From positions 88,196 to 152,195 of the forward strand of contig JBJHCZ010000004.1 of assembly GCA_050486285.1 (NCBI GenBank): DNA of 64,000 nucleotides, read 5' to 3'. Origin of the DNA: Chromatiales bacterium. Its GTDB lineage: Bacteria; Pseudomonadota; Gammaproteobacteria; SZUA-140. Below the pieces are notes generated by a model that was not told the DNA's origin, did no database searches, and was given only the letters and a program-made list of their open reading frames with translations. Made by a program: the position numbers and the translations under genes. Below are positions 6,377-54,970 of the stretch, piece by piece; positions within the stretch are counted from its first letter, which is position 1; every line of letters starts with the position of its first letter.

Positions 6377-6706
6377 ATGGATGTCATGGAACGTATCAGG
6401 CAGCAGGTCGAGGGCCACCCGATCGTGCTGTACATGAAGGGGACCCCCGAGATGCCGCAGTGCGGTTTCTCGAGCTACACCTCGCAGGCCCTGCGCGCCT
6501 GCAACGCGCAGTTTCACCACGTGAATGTCCTCGAGGATCCCGAGATCCGCCAGAATCTGCCGCGTTACGCGAACTGGCCGACCTTCCCGCAGCTCTACAT
6601 CAACGGCGAACTGGTCGGCGGCTGCGACATCGTGCTCGAACTCTACCAGAGCGGCGAGTTGCAGAAGCTCGTCAACACCGCCCGCGCCAATTCGGGGTCA
6701 GAGTAG
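6377..6706 (+). CDS. grxD: Grx4-family monothiol glutaredoxin
   Basis: Internal start MDVMERIRQQ; CGFS active site, PIVLYMKG, WPTFPQLYINGELVGGCDIV; colinear with E. coli GrxD. Confidence 0.9.
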   Translation: MDVMERIRQQVEGHPIVLYMKGTPEMPQCGFSSYTSQALRACNAQFHHVNVLEDPEIRQNLPRYANWPTFPQLYINGELVGGCDIVLELYQSGELQKLVNTARANSGSE

Positions 6707-6726
6707 ACTGCGTCTACTCTGACCCC
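6694..6726. terminator. perfect 15-bp stem / 3-nt loop hairpin spanning the convergent stop codons of grxD and rnt (putative bidirectional terminator)
   Basis: GGGGTCAGAGTAGAC-TGC-GTCTACTCTGACCCC read directly; no strong U-tract on either side. Confidence 0.45.
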
Positions 6727-46999: not shown

Positions 47000-49093
47000 T
47001 CACTTGACCCGCATGCCGGGCCGCGCCCCGTCCTCCGGTCCGATCAGCCAGATCTCGTCGCCACCGGGGCCGGCGGCCAGCACCATGCCCTCGGACACGC
47101 CGAAGCGCATCTTGCGCGGCGCCAGGTTCGCGACGACGACGACCTGGCGGCCGACCAGCGCCGGCGCGGCATAGCGGCCGCGGATGCCGGCGAACACCCG
47201 GCGGCTCTCGCCGTTGCCGATATCCAGGGTCAGTGCCAGCAGTTTGTCGGCGCCCTCGACGTCGCTGGCCTCGACGATGCGGGCGATGCGCAGGTCGATC
47301 TTCGCGAAATCTTCGATGGAGATCTCCCCGGATTTGCCGGGGTTATCGGCGGACCGCGGCGTCTCCTTGCGCGCGGTCCCTGCGGGCGTGGTGGTGGCAG
47401 CGGGCGCGGGCTGCGCCTGGTTCTCCCCGATCAGGGCCTCGATCTGGCGCGGTTCGATCCGCGTCGCGAGGTGTCTGTAGGGTTTGATCGGCCGTCCGAG
47501 CATGAGTTCAGCATGGCAGTCCCAGCGCGGCGCCGGGGTGTCGAGGAAGGCCTCGACCTCGGCGGCGAGCGCCGGCAGTACCGGCTTCAGGTACAGCGCC
47601 AGCAGGCGGAACGCGTTCAGAGCGGTCGTACAGACCTGCTGCACGCGGGCACGCTCGCCGGCAACATCGGACTTGATGCGGCGCCAGGGCTGTTGCTCAT
47701 TGATCCAGGCGTTGGCGGCATCGGCGAGGTCCATGATCTGGCGCACGGCCTCGCTGTAACGGCGCTCGTCCCAGGCGCGGGCGACCGGGTCGGCGGCCCG
47801 TTGCAGTTGCGCGAGCAGGGCGCGGTCGCCGGCGTCGATGTCGTCGGCGAGGCGGCCGTCGAAATGGCTGTGAATGAACCCGGCGCAGCGGCTCGCGATG
47901 TTGACGAACTTGCCGACGAGGTCGCTGTTGATGCGCGCGCTGAAATCGTCGAGGTTCAGGTCGAGGTCCTCGATGCGGTCGTTCAGCTTCGCGGCGAAGT
48001 AATAGCGCAGATATTCCGGATTCAGGTGGTTCAGGAACGAGCGCGCGGTGATGAAGGTGCCGCGCGACTTCGACATCTTCTGGCCGTTGACGGTCAGGAA
48101 GCCGTGCACGAAGATCCGGTCCGGCGTACGGTAGCCGGCGTGGTGCAGCATCGCCGGCCAGAACAGCGCATGGAAATAGAGGATGTCCTTGCCGATGAAG
48201 TGACACAACCGGGTGTTGCTGTCCGGCCGCCACCAGTCGTCGAAATCGAGGCCGCGCAGCTCGCACAGCCGCAGGAAACTCGCCATGTAGCCGATCGGCG
48301 CGTCGAGCCAGACATAGAGGTACTTGCCGGGCGCGTCCGGGATCTCGAAGCCGAAATAGGGCGCGTCGCGCGAGATGTCCCAGTCCCGCAGACCGGCCTC
48401 GAACCACTCCGCGAGCTTGTGGCGGGTCTCCGCCTGCAGCGGCGACTCACCGTCGCCGCCGGCGCGGCCGGCGCGCAGCCAGCCCTCGAGGAACTCGCGG
48501 CACTCGCCGAGGCGGAAGAAATGGTGCTCCGACTGCCTTCGGACCGGCGTTGCGCCGGAGATCGCCGATACCGGATCGATCAGATCGGTCGGTGCGTAGG
48601 TCGCGCCGCACTGCTCGCAGGCATCGCCGTACTGGTCGGCCGCGCCGCAGCGCGGGCAGGTCCCCTTGATATAGCGATCGGGCAGGAACATCTCGCGGAC
48701 CGGGTCGTAGAGCTGTTCGATGGACCGCACCTCGATCAGGCCGCGCTCGCGCAGGCGGCGGTAGATCCCCTGCGCGAGGACGCGGTTCTCCTCCGAATTG
48801 GTCGAGTGATAGTGGTCGAAGGCCACATGAAATGCAGTGAAATCCTCGAGATGCTCGCGCTGCATGCGCTCGATCAGGGCCTCCGGCGTGATGCCTTCCT
48901 GTTCGGCGCGCAGCATTACCGGCGTACCGTGGGTATCATCGGCGCAGACATAGAGGCACTGGTGGCCGCGGAGCTTCTGGAAACGCACCCAGATGTCGGT
49001 CTGGATGTACTCGACCAGGTGGCCGATGTGGATCGATCCGTTCGCGTAGGGCAGGGCGCTGGTGACCAGTATTCTTCCAGGTTTTTCGGACAT
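47000..49093 (-). CDS. metG: methionine--tRNA ligase
   Basis: 697 aa; HIGH (HIGH-L) and KMSKS motifs, zinc knuckle, C-terminal tRNA-binding (EMAP/Trbp111-like) domain. Confidence 0.95.
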
Positions 49094-49227
49094 CTCGCTC
49101 GGCCGGGAAAAGGGGGCGGATAAAATGCGTTATTATAACTTGATCCGGCGCCACTTGGTGTAGAATCTGCGGTCTTCGGGCCAGCCCGCATACGGGAACT
49201 GACCCCTGACGGTCAAGGAGTGCAAGC

Positions 49228-50319
49228 ATGGCAGAGACCTCGCGACTGCAGGTCGAAATGGCGATCAAGGGGTACGTCGACCCCTATCTGGGCAAGGATC
49301 TCGTGTCCGCGTCGGCGGTGCGGGACATCGTCGTCGACGGCCGCCGCGCGCGCGTGCGTATCGCGCTCGGCTTCCCGGCGCGCGGCTATCACGACGCGCT
49401 GCGCGCGGCGCTGCGCGCGCGCATCGAAGCCATCGACGGCATCGACGGCGCCGACATCGAGATCGACAGCAGCGTGATCACCCACGCAGTGCAGAAGGGC
49501 GTCAAGCCGATCCCGAACATTCGCAACATCATCGCCGTCGCCTCCGGCAAGGGCGGCGTCGGCAAGTCCACGACGGCGGTCAACCTCGCGCTCGCGCTCG
49601 CCGCCGAAGGCGCAACCGCCGGCATCCTCGACGCCGACATCTACGGCCCCAGCCAGCCGCGCATGCTCGGCTCGAAAGAGCGCCCGAAATCGATCGACGG
49701 CCGCTCGATGGAGCCGGTCATCGCCCACGGCATCCAGTCGATGTCGATCGGCTACCTCGTCGACGAGGAATCGCCGATGATCTGGCGCGGCCCGATGGTG
49801 ACCCAGGCCCTCGAACAACTACTGCGCGAGACCCGCTGGCAGCCGATGGACTACCTCGTCATCGACCTGCCCCCCGGCACCGGCGACATCCAGCTCACAC
49901 TGTCGCAGAAGATCCCGGTCAGCGGCGCCGTCATCGTCACAACCCCGCAGGACATCGCGCTGCTCGACGCGCGCAAGGCGCTGAAGATGTTCGAGCGCGT
50001 CGACGTCACCGTGCTCGGCATCATCGAGAACATGAGCATCCACGTCTGCAGCCAGTGCGGCCACCAGGAACCGATCTTCGGCGAGGGCGGCGGCCGCGCG
50101 ATGGCCGACCAGTATCACGTCGATCTGCTCGGCCAGTTGCCGCTCGACCGCCGCATCCGCGAAGAGGCCGACGGCGGCAACCCGAGCGTCGTCACCGACC
50201 CCGACAACGCGATCGCGCAGGCCTACCGCGAGATCGCCCGCAAGGTCGCCGCGAAGCTGTCGCTGCAGGCCAAGGACTACAGCGCCAAGATCCCGAACAT
50301 CGTGATCGAGCAGACCTGA
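49228..50319 (+). CDS. apbC: iron-sulfur cluster carrier ATPase (Mrp/ApbC/NBP35 family)
   Basis: 363 aa; N-terminal DUF59-like domain, Walker A SGKGGVGKST, CSQCGH motif; divergent from metG as in enterics. Confidence 0.9.
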   Translation: MAETSRLQVEMAIKGYVDPYLGKDLVSASAVRDIVVDGRRARVRIALGFPARGYHDALRAALRARIEAIDGIDGADIEIDSSVITHAVQKGVKPIPNIRNIIAVASGKGGVGKSTTAVNLALALAAEGATAGILDADIYGPSQPRMLGSKERPKSIDGRSMEPVIAHGIQSMSIGYLVDEESPMIWRGPMVTQALEQLLRETRWQPMDYLVIDLPPGTGDIQLTLSQKIPVSGAVIVTTPQDIALLDARKALKMFERVDVTVLGIIENMSIHVCSQCGHQEPIFGEGGGRAMADQYHVDLLGQLPLDRRIREEADGGNPSVVTDPDNAIAQAYREIARKVAAKLSLQAKDYSAKIPNIVIEQT

Positions 50320-50342
50320 GAGTCGAGCGACTGCCGAGGCGA

Positions 50343-50456
50343 GTGTCCGGGCGGGGGTTGCCTGTGACAGGACCCTCGGCCGCAGGGATGCGGCCGTGGA
50401 GCCTACAGGGACGTATTCACGGCGTGTCCTGTCACAGGCAACCCCCGCCCGGACAC
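50343..50456. repeat. long perfect inverted repeat: 31-bp stems (50343-50373 / 50426-50456) around a 52-nt spacer containing a smaller hairpin, between apbC and dcd
   Basis: GTGTCCGGGCGGGGGTTGCCTGTGACAGGAC ... GTCCTGTCACAGGCAACCCCCGCCCGGACAC read directly. Confidence 0.75.
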
Positions 50457-50491
50457 GGATTCAGAACCACAATACAGGATAACGAATGACC

Positions 50492-51058
50492 ATGAGCATC
50501 AAGTCAGACCGCTGGATCCGCGAGATGGCCGAGAAGCACGGCATGATCGAGCCGTTCGAGCCGCGCCAGGTCAGGGAGAACAAGGGCGGCAGCGTGATCT
50601 CCTACGGCACCTCGAGCTACGGCTACGACATCCGCTGCGCCGACGACTTCAAGATCTTCACCAACATCAACTCCGCGGTCGTCGACCCCAAGAACTTCGA
50701 CTCCAACAGCTTCGTCGACATCCGCTCCGACGTCTGCATCATCCCGCCGAACTCCTTCGCCCTCGCGCGCACCGTCGAATACTTCCGCATCCCGCGCAGC
50801 GTCCTCACCATCTGCCTCGGCAAGAGCACCTACGCGCGCTGCGGCATCATCGTCAACGTCACCCCGCTCGAACCCGAATGGGAAGGCCACGTCACCCTCG
50901 AGTTCTCGAACACCACGCCGCTGCCGGCCAAGATCTACGCCAACGAAGGCGTCGCCCAGGTCCTGTTCTTCGAATCGGATGAAGTCTGCGAGACCTCGTA
51001 CGCGGACCGCGCCGGCAAGTACCAGGGCCAGCGCGGCGTCACCCTGCCCAAGGCCTGA
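50492..51058 (+). CDS. dcd: dCTP deaminase
   Basis: Start [22 protein letters not shown]...; near-colinear with the Pseudomonas-type Dcd as I recall it. Confidence 0.9.
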
Positions 51059-51210
51059 CGTCGTTAGCAGGCAGTTGAAAGCGCCCGGCGGGTTTTCTCC
51101 GCGAATGGCTCGCCTCGCTGCCGCTGCGCGGCACCCTTCGGGCTCCGGCGAGGCTGCGCTTGACTTCGCTGCGTAAACCCGCCGGGCGCTTTCAACTGCC
51201 TGCTAACGAC
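51059..51210. repeat. long perfect inverted repeat: 35-bp stems (51060-51094 / 51176-51210) around an 81-nt spacer with internal secondary hairpins, between convergent dcd and DUF3108 gene (overlaps DUF3108 stop)
   Basis: GTCGTTAGCAGGCAGTTGAAAGCGCCCGGCGGGTT ... AACCCGCCGGGCGCTTTCAACTGCCTGCTAACGAC read directly. Confidence 0.75.
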
Positions 51211-51973
51211 CGCGCTCGATCGCCGATACCGTCACCGCGACCATGCGCCGATCGCGATGCTGTTCCAGCCGCACCGGCAGATAGCCGAGGTCGATCGCGC
51301 ACCAGATCACCGTGCGGCGATCACCATGCATGCGCTCGAGCTTGATCGTCTTCAGCCGGCCGACCGGCGTACGCAGTTCCTCGCGACCGACGACCTCGTA
51401 GCGGTATATCTTGAGTTCGCCGCCGTCGGCGACGTGGTACTCGCGACCGATCCCGCCGTCCTGCATGTCCAGCATCATCGTGTACTGGTAGAGCAGCTTG
51501 TCCTGGGCGTCGTCCGGAATCTTCATCTGCCACGGATCGTTGTTCACGGTATTCGTCACCGAACCCCGGTCCCAGTCGAAATCGAGCACGACGTGACGCT
51601 CATCCTTGCGTCCGGTATGGTGATACTCGTACTTCAGCGGGCGCGGACGCTCCGCCACATATTCCCAGATGCTGCGCTCGACGATGTGGTCGCGCAGCAC
51701 CGTTGACAGGAAGCCGGCGGGCTTCGAGACCGATTCGAGGACCCAGGTGCCGTTGGCGCCGCGGCGCAGGCTGCGCTCCATGCGCGCGAGCAGCATCGAG
51801 TTGTGCCTGACCTCGTAACGGACCGTGAAGGGTTCGAGCGGCGCGGCCGCCTCGACCGCGGGCGGCCAGGCCGGGAGCAACGCGAGCGTCACGGCGACCG
51901 CCGCCGCGCGCAGCAGGACGCCGCCGGCGTGGTCAGCCCGGGCTGGCGTCGTCATGGCCGGCCTGCGGTTCAC
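51203..51973 (-). CDS. DUF3108 domain protein (secreted)
   Basis: 256 aa with signal peptide; this family commonly sits upstream of purN in gammaproteobacteria. Confidence 0.55.
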   Translation of the reverse strand: MNRRPAMTTPARADHAGGVLLRAAAVAVTLALLPAWPPAVEAAAPLEPFTVRYEVRHNSMLLARMERSLRRGANGTWVLESVSKPAGFLSTVLRDHIVERSIWEYVAERPRPLKYEYHHTGRKDERHVVLDFDWDRGSVTNTVNNDPWQMKIPDDAQDKLLYQYTMMLDMQDGGIGREYHVADGGELKIYRYEVVGREELRTPVGRLKTIKLERMHGDRRTVIWCAIDLGYLPVRLEQHRDRRMVAVTVSAIERGR

Positions 51974-52652
51974 CGGTGTCGTTGACCTCGTCGAAATCGA
52001 GCGGCGCCGCCAGCGGGCGGCCGTCGAACAGGATGCGGCCGTTCCGCAGTCGCAGCCGGCCCTCGGCGAACCAGCGGATCGCGAGCGGGTACATCCGGTG
52101 TTCGAGCGCGAGCACCCGGGCCGCGAGCGCGGCCGGATCGTCGCCGCGTCGCACCGGCACCCGCCCCCGGATGACCACGGGACCGCCGTCGAGCTCGTCG
52201 GTGACGAAGTGCACGCTGGCGCCGTGCTCGGCGGCGCCGGCCTCCAGCGCGCGCCGATGGGTATTCAGGCCCGGAAAGGCCGGCAGCAGGGACGGATGGA
52301 TATTGAGCAGCCGACCGTCGAATGCGCTGACGAAATCCGGCGCGAGGATGCGCATATAGCCGGCCAGCACGACGAGGTCAGGCGCCAGCCCGACGACGCG
52401 ATTCAGCAATGCGCGATCGAAATCCGCGCGCCCGCTGCACGCAGCCGGATCGACGACGACCGCGGCAATGCCGGCCCGGGCGGCACGGTCGAGCGCCTGC
52501 GCCTGCGGCCGGTCGCTGACCACCGCGCGGATCGTCGCGGGGATCCCGCCGCGCGTCGCGGCATCGATGATCGCCTGGAGATTGCTGCCGCGGCCCGAGG
52601 CCAGCACGACCAGCGCCGGCGGCGCCCGCCGCGTTTCAGGTGATGACGACAC
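51933..52652 (-). CDS. purN: phosphoribosylglycinamide formyltransferase
   Basis: Colinear with E. coli PurN ([39 protein letters not shown]); start (GTG at 52650-52652) uncertain, the longer 317-aa ORF is read-through. Confidence 0.85.
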
Positions 52653-53688: not shown

Positions 53689-53848
53689 GGGAGTGCGTTC
53701 TTGTTGCGTGATTCGGGGTGTCCGCGAGCCGCAATTGTAACCCATATCCCGGTGGCAGGGACACCGTGGAACGCCTCCTTGAGCAGCGGCGTGTAGTCCG
53801 GATGGTGGCCATGCGGTATCATGCAGCGTTTGCGCCGGTGGATGCAGA

Positions 53849-54970
53849 ATGATGCGTGTGAAGTCGCCAGCAGGCAGGGGAAGCGGATGGATCGCGCGCG
53901 GCCTGATCGTCGCGCTCGCGCTGTTCGGCTGCGCCCTGGTTGCGCAGGCCGATGAACTGTATGAATCCCAGGTCCCGGTGAGCGGCCAGCAGGACCGGGA
54001 ACGCACCCGCGCGCTGCGCGCCGCCTTCGAACAGGTCCTGCTCAAGGTCACCGGCCGGCGCGACAGCGCCCAGGCGCCGGCGATCGAGGCCGCGTTGCGC
54101 CAGCCGATGCGCTATGTCCAGCAGTTCCTTTACCTCCCGCTGCCCGACGACAAGACCGGCGAGCGCATGCGCGCGGACGGCCATCGCGAACTGCTGCGCG
54201 TTCGCTTCGACGTCAATGCCGTCAATCAACTGCTGCGCGAAGCCGGCCTGGCGCAATGGGGGCGCACGCGCCCGGTCACGCTGATGTGGCTCGCGGTCGA
54301 GGATCGCGGCGAGCGCTGGCTGCTCGGCGGCGATGCCCGCACCGACATGCGCGCGGCCGCGGAACGCGAGGCGCGCGCGCGCGGCATCCCGGTGTTGCTG
54401 CCGCTGATGGACCTCGAGGACCGCAGGGAACTGCATTTCACCGATGTCTGGGGCAACTTCCAGGATTCGCTGTTGCGCGCCTCGGAACGCTACCAGCCGG
54501 GCGCGGTGCTGGCTGGACGGCTGCTGCACGGAGCCGGCGGCGGCTGGAGCGCGCGCTGGTCGTTATATCATGACGGCAATGCCGATCACTGGTCGGCCGC
54601 TGCGGAGGACTGGGAAGGATTGCTCGCCGCCGGTATCAACGGCGCCGCAGACCTGCTCGCCGCCCGGCATGCGCGCATCATCAGCGCCGACGGCCGCCAG
54701 TCCATCGACCTCGTCGTCACCGATGTCCGCGGCATCGACGGATATGAGCGCGCGATGAAATATCTCGCCGGCCTCGATCCGGTCGAGCGCATCCAGGTGG
54801 TCGGCCTCGAGGCCGACCAGGTGCGCTTTCGGCTCGCCCTGAGCGGCGATCGCGAAACGCTCGTACGCCTGATCGGCTTCGGTTCCGCGCTGGTGCCGCA
54901 GCCGCCCGGACCGGGGCGGTCGCCGGACGGCGGCGGCAGCCAGGAGCTCAGCTATCGACTGCTGCCGTGA
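53849..54970 (+). CDS. DUF2066 domain protein (secreted)
   Basis: 373 aa with signal peptide; conserved position between purM and pgsA-like/AI-2E/hda cluster. Confidence 0.55.

Follow-up and report, generated by a model that had tools for sequence, protein, structure and literature searches.

A long perfect hairpin between convergent dcd and DUF3108 genes of a Chromatiales bacterium, possibly grown in place by template switching, beside a member of a dispersed hairpin family

Why should the gap between two convergent genes be taken up entirely by a palindrome? In the 64,000-nucleotide stretch of a Chromatiales bacterium that we analysed (hereafter, the window), dcd, which encodes a dCTP deaminase of 188 aa (50492-51058, + strand, with an alternative ATG at 50486), converges on a gene of the DUF3108 family (51203-51973, - strand), and the whole gap between their stop codons is filled by an inverted repeat with a total span of 151 bases (51060-51210), which we call hairpin B. 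Hairpin A (50343-50456, + strand) lies on the other side of dcd, downstream of apbC/mrp, a gene for a NUBPL-type P-loop NTPase (49228-50319, + strand), and A and B are the sole long hairpins in the window. The first-pass annotation of this DNA had described dcd as bracketed by two giant hairpins, which is indeed the arrangement (A has perfect arms of 31 nt), and had proposed three roles for B: a bidirectional terminator or transcript-stabilising structure, a mobile miniature element, or a recombination site. The surrounding gene order is metG (-), apbC (+), dcd (+), DUF3108 (-), purN (-), purM (-), and it is kept in all relatives recovered via the DUF3108 protein. No mobile-element genes were seen near B, the neighbours being conserved housekeeping genes. 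Exact-protein look-ups of the window's Dcd found neither the 190 aa nor the 188 aa version on record.

The arms of B, as located by a repeat finder, occupy 51060-51094 and 51176-51210 and are complementary at all 35 positions, just as the 35-bp perfect inverted repeat had been described. The arm was also said to follow the dcd stop (TGA, 51056-51058) by 1 nt, and it does, with the small correction that the coordinate given for that start, 51059, is the single base between stop and arm, the arm proper running from 51060. The inverted repeat reaches inward to 46 nt at 93% (51060-51105 with 51165-51210) through imperfect inner extensions at 51095-51105 and 51165-51175, in which 8 of 11 positions pair. 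The DUF3108 gene has its final two codons and its stop within the right arm (51203-51210; the stop reads CTA on the + strand at 51203-51205), which bears out the claimed overlap with the stop of the convergent gene, and the first 8 nt of the left arm, GTCGTTAG, are an inverted copy of that gene end. The 59-nt tip (51106-51164) forms a three-way junction in predicted RNA folds of both strands: a helix of GCCTCGC (51112-51118) with GCGAGGC (51148-51154) surrounds two small hairpins, GCCGC-TGC-GCGGC at 51120-51132 and CCC-TTC-GGG at 51134-51142. The spacer is thus self-complementary, as had been noticed, through this pairing and not through the pairing of CGCCTCG with CGAGGCG that had been put forward. 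The predicted folding energy of B is -114.5 kcal/mol (z -10.3) for + strand RNA and -115.3 kcal/mol (z -9.1) for - strand RNA.

This palindrome is far beyond chance: even at a tolerance of 3 mismatches, the 35-mer of the arm has only these two sites in the window (0 of 100 shuffles). Nor is B an assembly artefact, since a Logan contig from the same strain (L001) independently runs into its right arm, where it ends, and the arm recurs in diverged form in another metagenome-assembled genome (MAG; L002). We found no second copy in the window. A degenerate arm pattern, run against one genome per species for 185,579 species (the GTDB species representatives, the L002 MAG among them), returned only the orthologous L002 arm and chance matches in coding DNA. 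A stricter arm pattern had no match in the JGI metagenomes, the arm pattern together with two 20-mers from the tip had none in IMG/VR, and BLASTN of the whole of B had none among plasmids and phages; nothing similar to B occurs in 839 kb of fetched loci, its six-frame peptides match none of 5.8 billion predicted proteins, and it corresponds to no Rfam family. The two largest of these scans queried the arm sequence, and a family with a constant core and a locus-specific stem, like that of A, would escape them. Two kinds of weak similarity were rejected along the way: Rfam matches of both A and B to plant and animal miRNA precursors, which are generic long-hairpin matches far below gathering scores, and a BLAST similarity of the tip to a metagenome locus (L037), which lies inside a coding region where there is no hairpin. 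On present evidence, B appears to be single-copy.

The first-pass annotation had asked whether dcd is flanked by such hairpins everywhere; it is not. B is absent from four relatives with identical synteny, where the distance between the dcd and DUF3108 stop codons is 21 nt (L003), 47 nt (L006), 15 nt (L007) and 9 nt (L010). In a 90% relative (L140; protein P0002), the sequence past the DUF3108 stop is unrelated to B over the 12 nt that remain before the contig ends. The B arm is present, with 5 substitutions in 44 nt, in the L002 MAG (GCA_964384095.1, raw reads SRP193661, named 'uncultured Chromatiales bacterium'), whose contig ends at the boundary between arm and tip, so that the comparison covers one arm only. 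A Dcd homologue search for the dcd side of that lineage did not find it in the collections, the best match (P0109) being a chimeric contig with a duplicated dcd. Because B is found in the window and in L002 and is missing elsewhere, it arose before these two lineages split, and it appears to be confined to one lineage. Absence from close relatives of identical synteny, together with a lack of other copies, had been named in advance as the outcome that would point to random palindrome formation. That outcome is largely what we observe, but B goes back beyond one speciation and its arms have stayed perfect, which does not fit a one-off accident. Separately, the spacers of L003 (6709-6729) and L006 (2358-2404) have about 18 nt in common (GGGGGCAGACTCTCCCGGAG and GGGGGGCAGATCCCGGG) in opposite orientations, an inversion at the very junction that B occupies.

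A clue to the origin of the arms comes from their outer ends. At its outer end the right arm has 8 nt, (G)GT CGT TAG, that encode Gly-Arg-stop, and the L140 gene ends GGC CGC TAG, with the same residues (the C-terminus ...ERGR* is common to both proteins). Since these 8 nt are ancestral gene sequence, their mirror in the left arm, beside dcd, must have been copied from the gene end; the evidence for copying covers these outer 8 nt of the arm only. We estimate that an incoming element would recreate Gly-Arg-stop by chance about once in a thousand.

A further clue is how the arms have changed. Between the window and L002, 5 of 44 arm positions differ (positions 5, 11, 19, 26 and 29), or 11.4%, compared with 12.6% at the 4-fold degenerate sites of the DUF3108 gene, and this match to the neutral rate argues that the arm sequence is without detectable constraint. 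Under independent drift, the 35-bp stem in the window should by now contain about 4.4 mismatches; it contains none (Poisson probability about 0.01, with equal rates assumed and a single L002 arm to compare). We infer from this difference that the two arms evolve together.

Template switching is known to give rise to inverted repeats and to homogenise, repair, expand and invert them (PMC8794818, PMC8604942, PMC13100816). We tentatively prefer, while stopping short of calling it probable, the reading that B grew and is maintained in place by this process and that it serves as a 3'-end barrier for the transcripts of both neighbouring genes. B would then be a palindrome that arose where it now stands and not a copy of a dispersed element; template switching during replication, in which a strand copies the opposite arm of the hairpin, would keep its arms identical, and the same process would have extended the arms outward into the final 8 nt of the DUF3108 gene. 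B is similar to described quasipalindromes and template-switch repeats (Ripley model; Monttinen & Loytynoja 2022, PMC8794818; PMC8604942; PMC13100816) in that its arms are perfect reverse complements, one of them corresponds to local sequence that was there before (the gene end), the two appear to evolve together, and relatives show a spacer inversion at the same junction. It differs in the length of its stem, 35-46 bp where the described stems are mostly short, and in its structured 59-nt tip, which the mechanism alone does not explain. The tip, 59-81 nt depending on whether the inner extensions are counted, must have had a source beyond template switching alone, and was presumably either inserted or built stepwise.

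Much the same molecular history could have left a structure with no function at all. B would in that case be a neutral by-product, produced and kept perfect purely by template switching during replication or by the correction of mismatches inside the hairpin, with no selected effect on expression. Because relatives do without B, having only tiny spacers in its place, and because the B arm drifts at the neutral rate, a neutral palindrome is a serious rival; moreover, homogenisation of arms by template switching requires no selection (PMC8794818, PMC8604942). We nonetheless regard a wholly neutral B as doubtful, since a hairpin of -115 kcal/mol that begins 1 nt past one stop codon and contains the other would be part of both mRNAs and is unlikely to be without effect, and since B has persisted through at least one speciation.

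Several classes of bacterial repeat, namely REP/BIME, REPIN, ERIC/IRU and Correia (NEMIS) elements and MITEs, have known effects on mRNA stability, termination and processing. B could be a low-copy insertion of this miniature foldback or MITE-like kind, its arms being terminal inverted repeats and its outer 8 nt the sole local modification. The resemblance is real: B is a palindrome in a transcribed gap at gene 3' ends, its length of 151 bp with inverted ends of 35-46 bp (35 nt perfect, 46 nt at 93%, as expected of terminal inverted repeats) recalls the Correia, ERIC and MITE elements (100-170 bp), its presence is polymorphic within conserved synteny, the roughly 100-130 nt that it adds have no local source, and its neighbour A does belong to a dispersed family. 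Those repeats, however, are multi-copy, have a conserved sequence and usually carry a target-site duplication, whereas for B we detected no second copy in the window, the GTDB representatives, the JGI metagenomes, IMG/VR, plasmids or phages (mostly arm-based searches), and it has no target-site duplication, its flanks (...CCTGAC and CGCGCT...) sharing no direct repeat. A REP or REPIN unit would be 20-40 nt long, with many copies and inverted pairs; within the 64 kb, the B arm was found only in B, with 3 mismatches allowed. The inverted repeat also runs 8 nt into ancestral DUF3108 coding sequence, so that the B arm, in contrast to such elements, includes gene sequence. Contigs of two independent assemblies break inside B, as contigs do at repeats, but these breaks are also explained if an inverted repeat exceeds the assembler's k in length. 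We therefore consider an insertion unlikely for B, and the label of mobile miniature element, which the first-pass annotation had offered for it and which the lack of other copies, the lack of a target-site duplication and the ancestral gene sequence in the arm leave unsupported, describes A well.

Might B nonetheless be related to A, as a strongly diverged member of A's family, which is related to the Rfam family Ysr224 and carries twin GGA hairpins? The two are alike in architecture, each having a long stem and a three-way junction with two small hairpins; B occupies the same niche, abutting gene 3' ends, and a genuine member of the family lies one gene away. The tip of B is longer than the core of A, though, and its loops (+ strand, UGC and UUC; - strand, GCA and GAA) are not the A(N)GGA of the family; there is no similarity in core sequence; and the family core is under purifying selection, while the B arm drifts neutrally. 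When run with filters off, R1, our covariance model of the family, scores A at 97.5 bits and reports nothing at 51060-51210 at E<=10, so that dcd is flanked by two unrelated hairpins. Membership of B in the A family is close to refuted, and we hold it to be highly improbable. A different relationship, in which B is the first member seen of a second, A-like family with a conserved tip and a locus-specific stem kept paired by template switching, we judge to be distinctly unlikely, if less so. Were it true, dcd would be bracketed by two strand-specific structured RNA elements that recruit regulators and jointly set the fate of the dcd mRNA. Least probable of all the readings, to the point of being hardly credible, is that B is a recombinase site, whether an integron attC-like site, a dif-like site or an invertible segment. 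B does have a long inverted repeat, and inverted arms could in principle invert the tip. attC sites have R''/R' core sites of the form RYYYAAC ... GTTRRRY, extrahelical bases, and an integrase or cassette array adjacent to them. The ends of B (GTCGTTAGCA... and ...TGCTAACGAC) lack attC core sites, its stem is perfect, with no extrahelical bases, and no integrase, transposase or cassette array lies nearby. The suggestion of a recombination site thus found no support, there being no attC or dif features, no recombinase, and a housekeeping synteny that is conserved.

What, then, might B do to the transcripts that run into it? Since dcd and the DUF3108 gene are both transcribed into B, each mRNA would end in the same highly stable structure, predicted to be a 46-bp stem bearing a three-way junction. 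As a 3'-end barrier, such a structure may set where both messages end, may protect those 3' ends and may limit convergent read-through into the opposite gene. Of the three roles proposed in the first-pass annotation, a bidirectional terminating or transcript-stabilising effect is the most plausible, and a barrier of this kind is what we would predict from the position and fold of B. Like a bidirectional intrinsic terminator, B is GC-rich, lies exactly between convergent stop codons and folds equally on both strands. Its stem is, however, 3-5 times longer than that of an intrinsic terminator (35-46 bp compared with about 5-15 bp), its loop is 59-81 nt long where 3-8 nt would be usual, and it has no A-run or T-run. 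Indeed, no T-run or A-run flanks B on either side (past the stem the + strand reads CGCGCTCGAT and the - strand GTCAGGCCTT), and a scan for consensus terminators across 49000-52500 found none. Judged by its sequence, B would not be a canonical intrinsic terminator. Canonical terminators consisting of a hairpin and a T-run are not enriched in the window, where 18 were found between positions 1 and 60000 and about 29 were expected from shuffles, so the missing T-run at B says little about termination here. The shortfall suggests that the organism leans little on canonical intrinsic terminators. Close relatives manage with 9-47 nt at this junction, which argues that a large structure is not required there and that B could be neutral.

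Cleavage of the stem by RNase III is a plausible modifier of any barrier effect. The 35 bp of perfect duplex, present on both strands, exceed the roughly 22 bp of uninterrupted duplex that RNase III needs, and would make B an ideal substrate. RNase III hairpins in 3' regions are familiar from lambda sib/int retroregulation and from the T7 early sites. B shares with these a stretch of more than 22 bp of unbroken duplex within a 3' untranslated region; the known sites differ in that they are usually shorter and have internal loops. Proximity to the stop codon may matter too: in 2015, Liang, Rudd and Deutscher reportedly found that termination is slowed by REP elements that lie no more than 15 nt from a stop codon.

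Hairpin A, on the other side of dcd, has a different evolutionary signature. Its arms (50343-50373 and 50426-50456) enclose a 52-nt core (50374-50425), it begins 24 nt past the apbC stop and ends 35 nt before the dcd start, and its predicted fold has an energy of -99.5 kcal/mol (z -11.5). A is conserved at the same spot in L003, L006 and L007 and is absent from L010. The A arms differ from those in the window at 2 positions in L007 and at 5 in L003, and every one of these differences is compensated on the opposite arm, two transversion pairs being among the compensations. The core has changed little, with 3-5 differences between the window and L007 or L003, compared with about 30% at 4-fold sites (p = 3e-5 and 3e-4).

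Copies with the same core are widespread. A 22-nt pattern from the A core matched at least 120 metagenome loci (L017-L137) and 1 IMG/VR locus, and, among the matches listed, nearly all have the same core within a long, near-perfect stem that differs from locus to locus. The stems have a median length of 27 bp, and 32 of 95 complete elements are without a mismatch (again among the matches listed); they carry a weak G-rich consensus only. R1, whose 52-nt core is laid out as P2, GAGCS, P3, UUCACNGCGU, finds 141-145 members in about 0.7 Mb of the loci listed, often several per contig. Across 142 distinct sequences from the matches listed, covariation is strong in all five helices: 91.9% of cells pair, compared with 61% in shuffles, and the covariation score is 0.71, compared with 0.16 in shuffles and no more than 0.10 once the pairing partners are slid. 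Of the stem positions that depart from Watson-Crick pairing, 64 are of the G:T type and 7 of the A:C type, an asymmetry which argues that the strand with the GGA loops is selected to fold. By crude gene calls, and whichever way they are oriented, members adjoin the 3' ends of genes about twice as frequently as the 5' ends. We did not find the family in E. coli genomes or plasmids.

Copies also come and go. L007, a 72% relative, has a second member between its DUF2066 and purM genes (2094-2173), which is lacking in the window (around 53745-54050) and in L003, L002, L005 and L010, indicating that members of the family are gained or lost over short evolutionary times. The L007 copy gave rise to the idea that stems are built from flanking sequence, which we rejected because outer arms, when tested systematically, proved no more similar to the flanks than expected. 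Some members are clustered: four stand about 180 nt apart in a tandem array in L103 (4719-5335), and closely spaced inverted pairs with similar stems occur in L032 (6069-6519) and L021 (2222-2488).

The conserved loops of the family point to a possible regulator. Among the matches listed, an A(N)GGA loop is present in P2 in 129 of 142 members and in P3 in all 142, and the second small hairpin, UACAGGGAUGU, matches the CsrA SELEX consensus RUACARGGAUGU (PMC4347634). CsrA/Rsm is hence a candidate regulator acting on A through its twin A(N)GGA hairpins. No csrA gene was found in the window or in the fetched loci, stretches that are too short for this to be informative. We also note that the leader between A and dcd (50457-50494) has a further A(N)GGA at the ribosome-binding site (ACAGGAUAACGAAUG), where the relatives read CAGGGAC. 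Taken with the twin GGA hairpins of A, this GGA of the dcd leader resembles what might be expected of a CsrA-repressed leader.

One member had been catalogued before, in another guise. A copy in Yersinia (L138, 315-432), located downstream of glyS within the host DNA that closes a Mu-like phage record (MT591577), is Rfam RF02770, Ysr224 (127.8 bits), annotated on the strand opposite the GGA loops. On the Ysr224 model, A in the window scores 27 bits and B has no match, and 20 further loci of the family are all below any Rfam threshold for Ysr224. Rfam thus covers the family only via a narrow Yersinia model, on the opposite strand. According to a review, Ysr224 is among the twenty most abundant 'sRNA' matches across bacterial genomes (PMC9029176), an abundance that fits a dispersed repeat family better than a single sRNA gene. 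Our literature search for the A core sequence, or for a CsrA-linked MITE, found nothing relevant.

Other hairpins came to light in passing. A small perfect hairpin in the window (6695-6725; GGGTCAGAGTAGAC, 3 nt, GTCTACTCTGACCC) surfaced as a stem-only match to R1. A different long-hairpin repeat, with REP-like arms (TTGTAGGAGCGGGC...GCCCGCGAAAGG) and a loop of 84-89 nt, recurs in several metagenome contigs (L022, 4679-4822; L072, 10874-11017; L129, 1930-2082). Long intergenic hairpins of various unrelated kinds are common in these genomes, at about 1 per 80 kb outside the A family.

B fits a model in which long stems originate and are maintained by template switching, and would be a natural example of a process already described: a perfect long hairpin whose sequence drifts neutrally and which has grown into a coding end. 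It is also a convenient test case for the effect that a perfect stem of 35 bp, abutting two stop codons, may have on 3'-end formation and mRNA decay. The more notable result of this analysis is A, which belongs to a family that is very widespread, multi-copy, strongly covarying and poorly catalogued, and that carries loops of the CsrA type.
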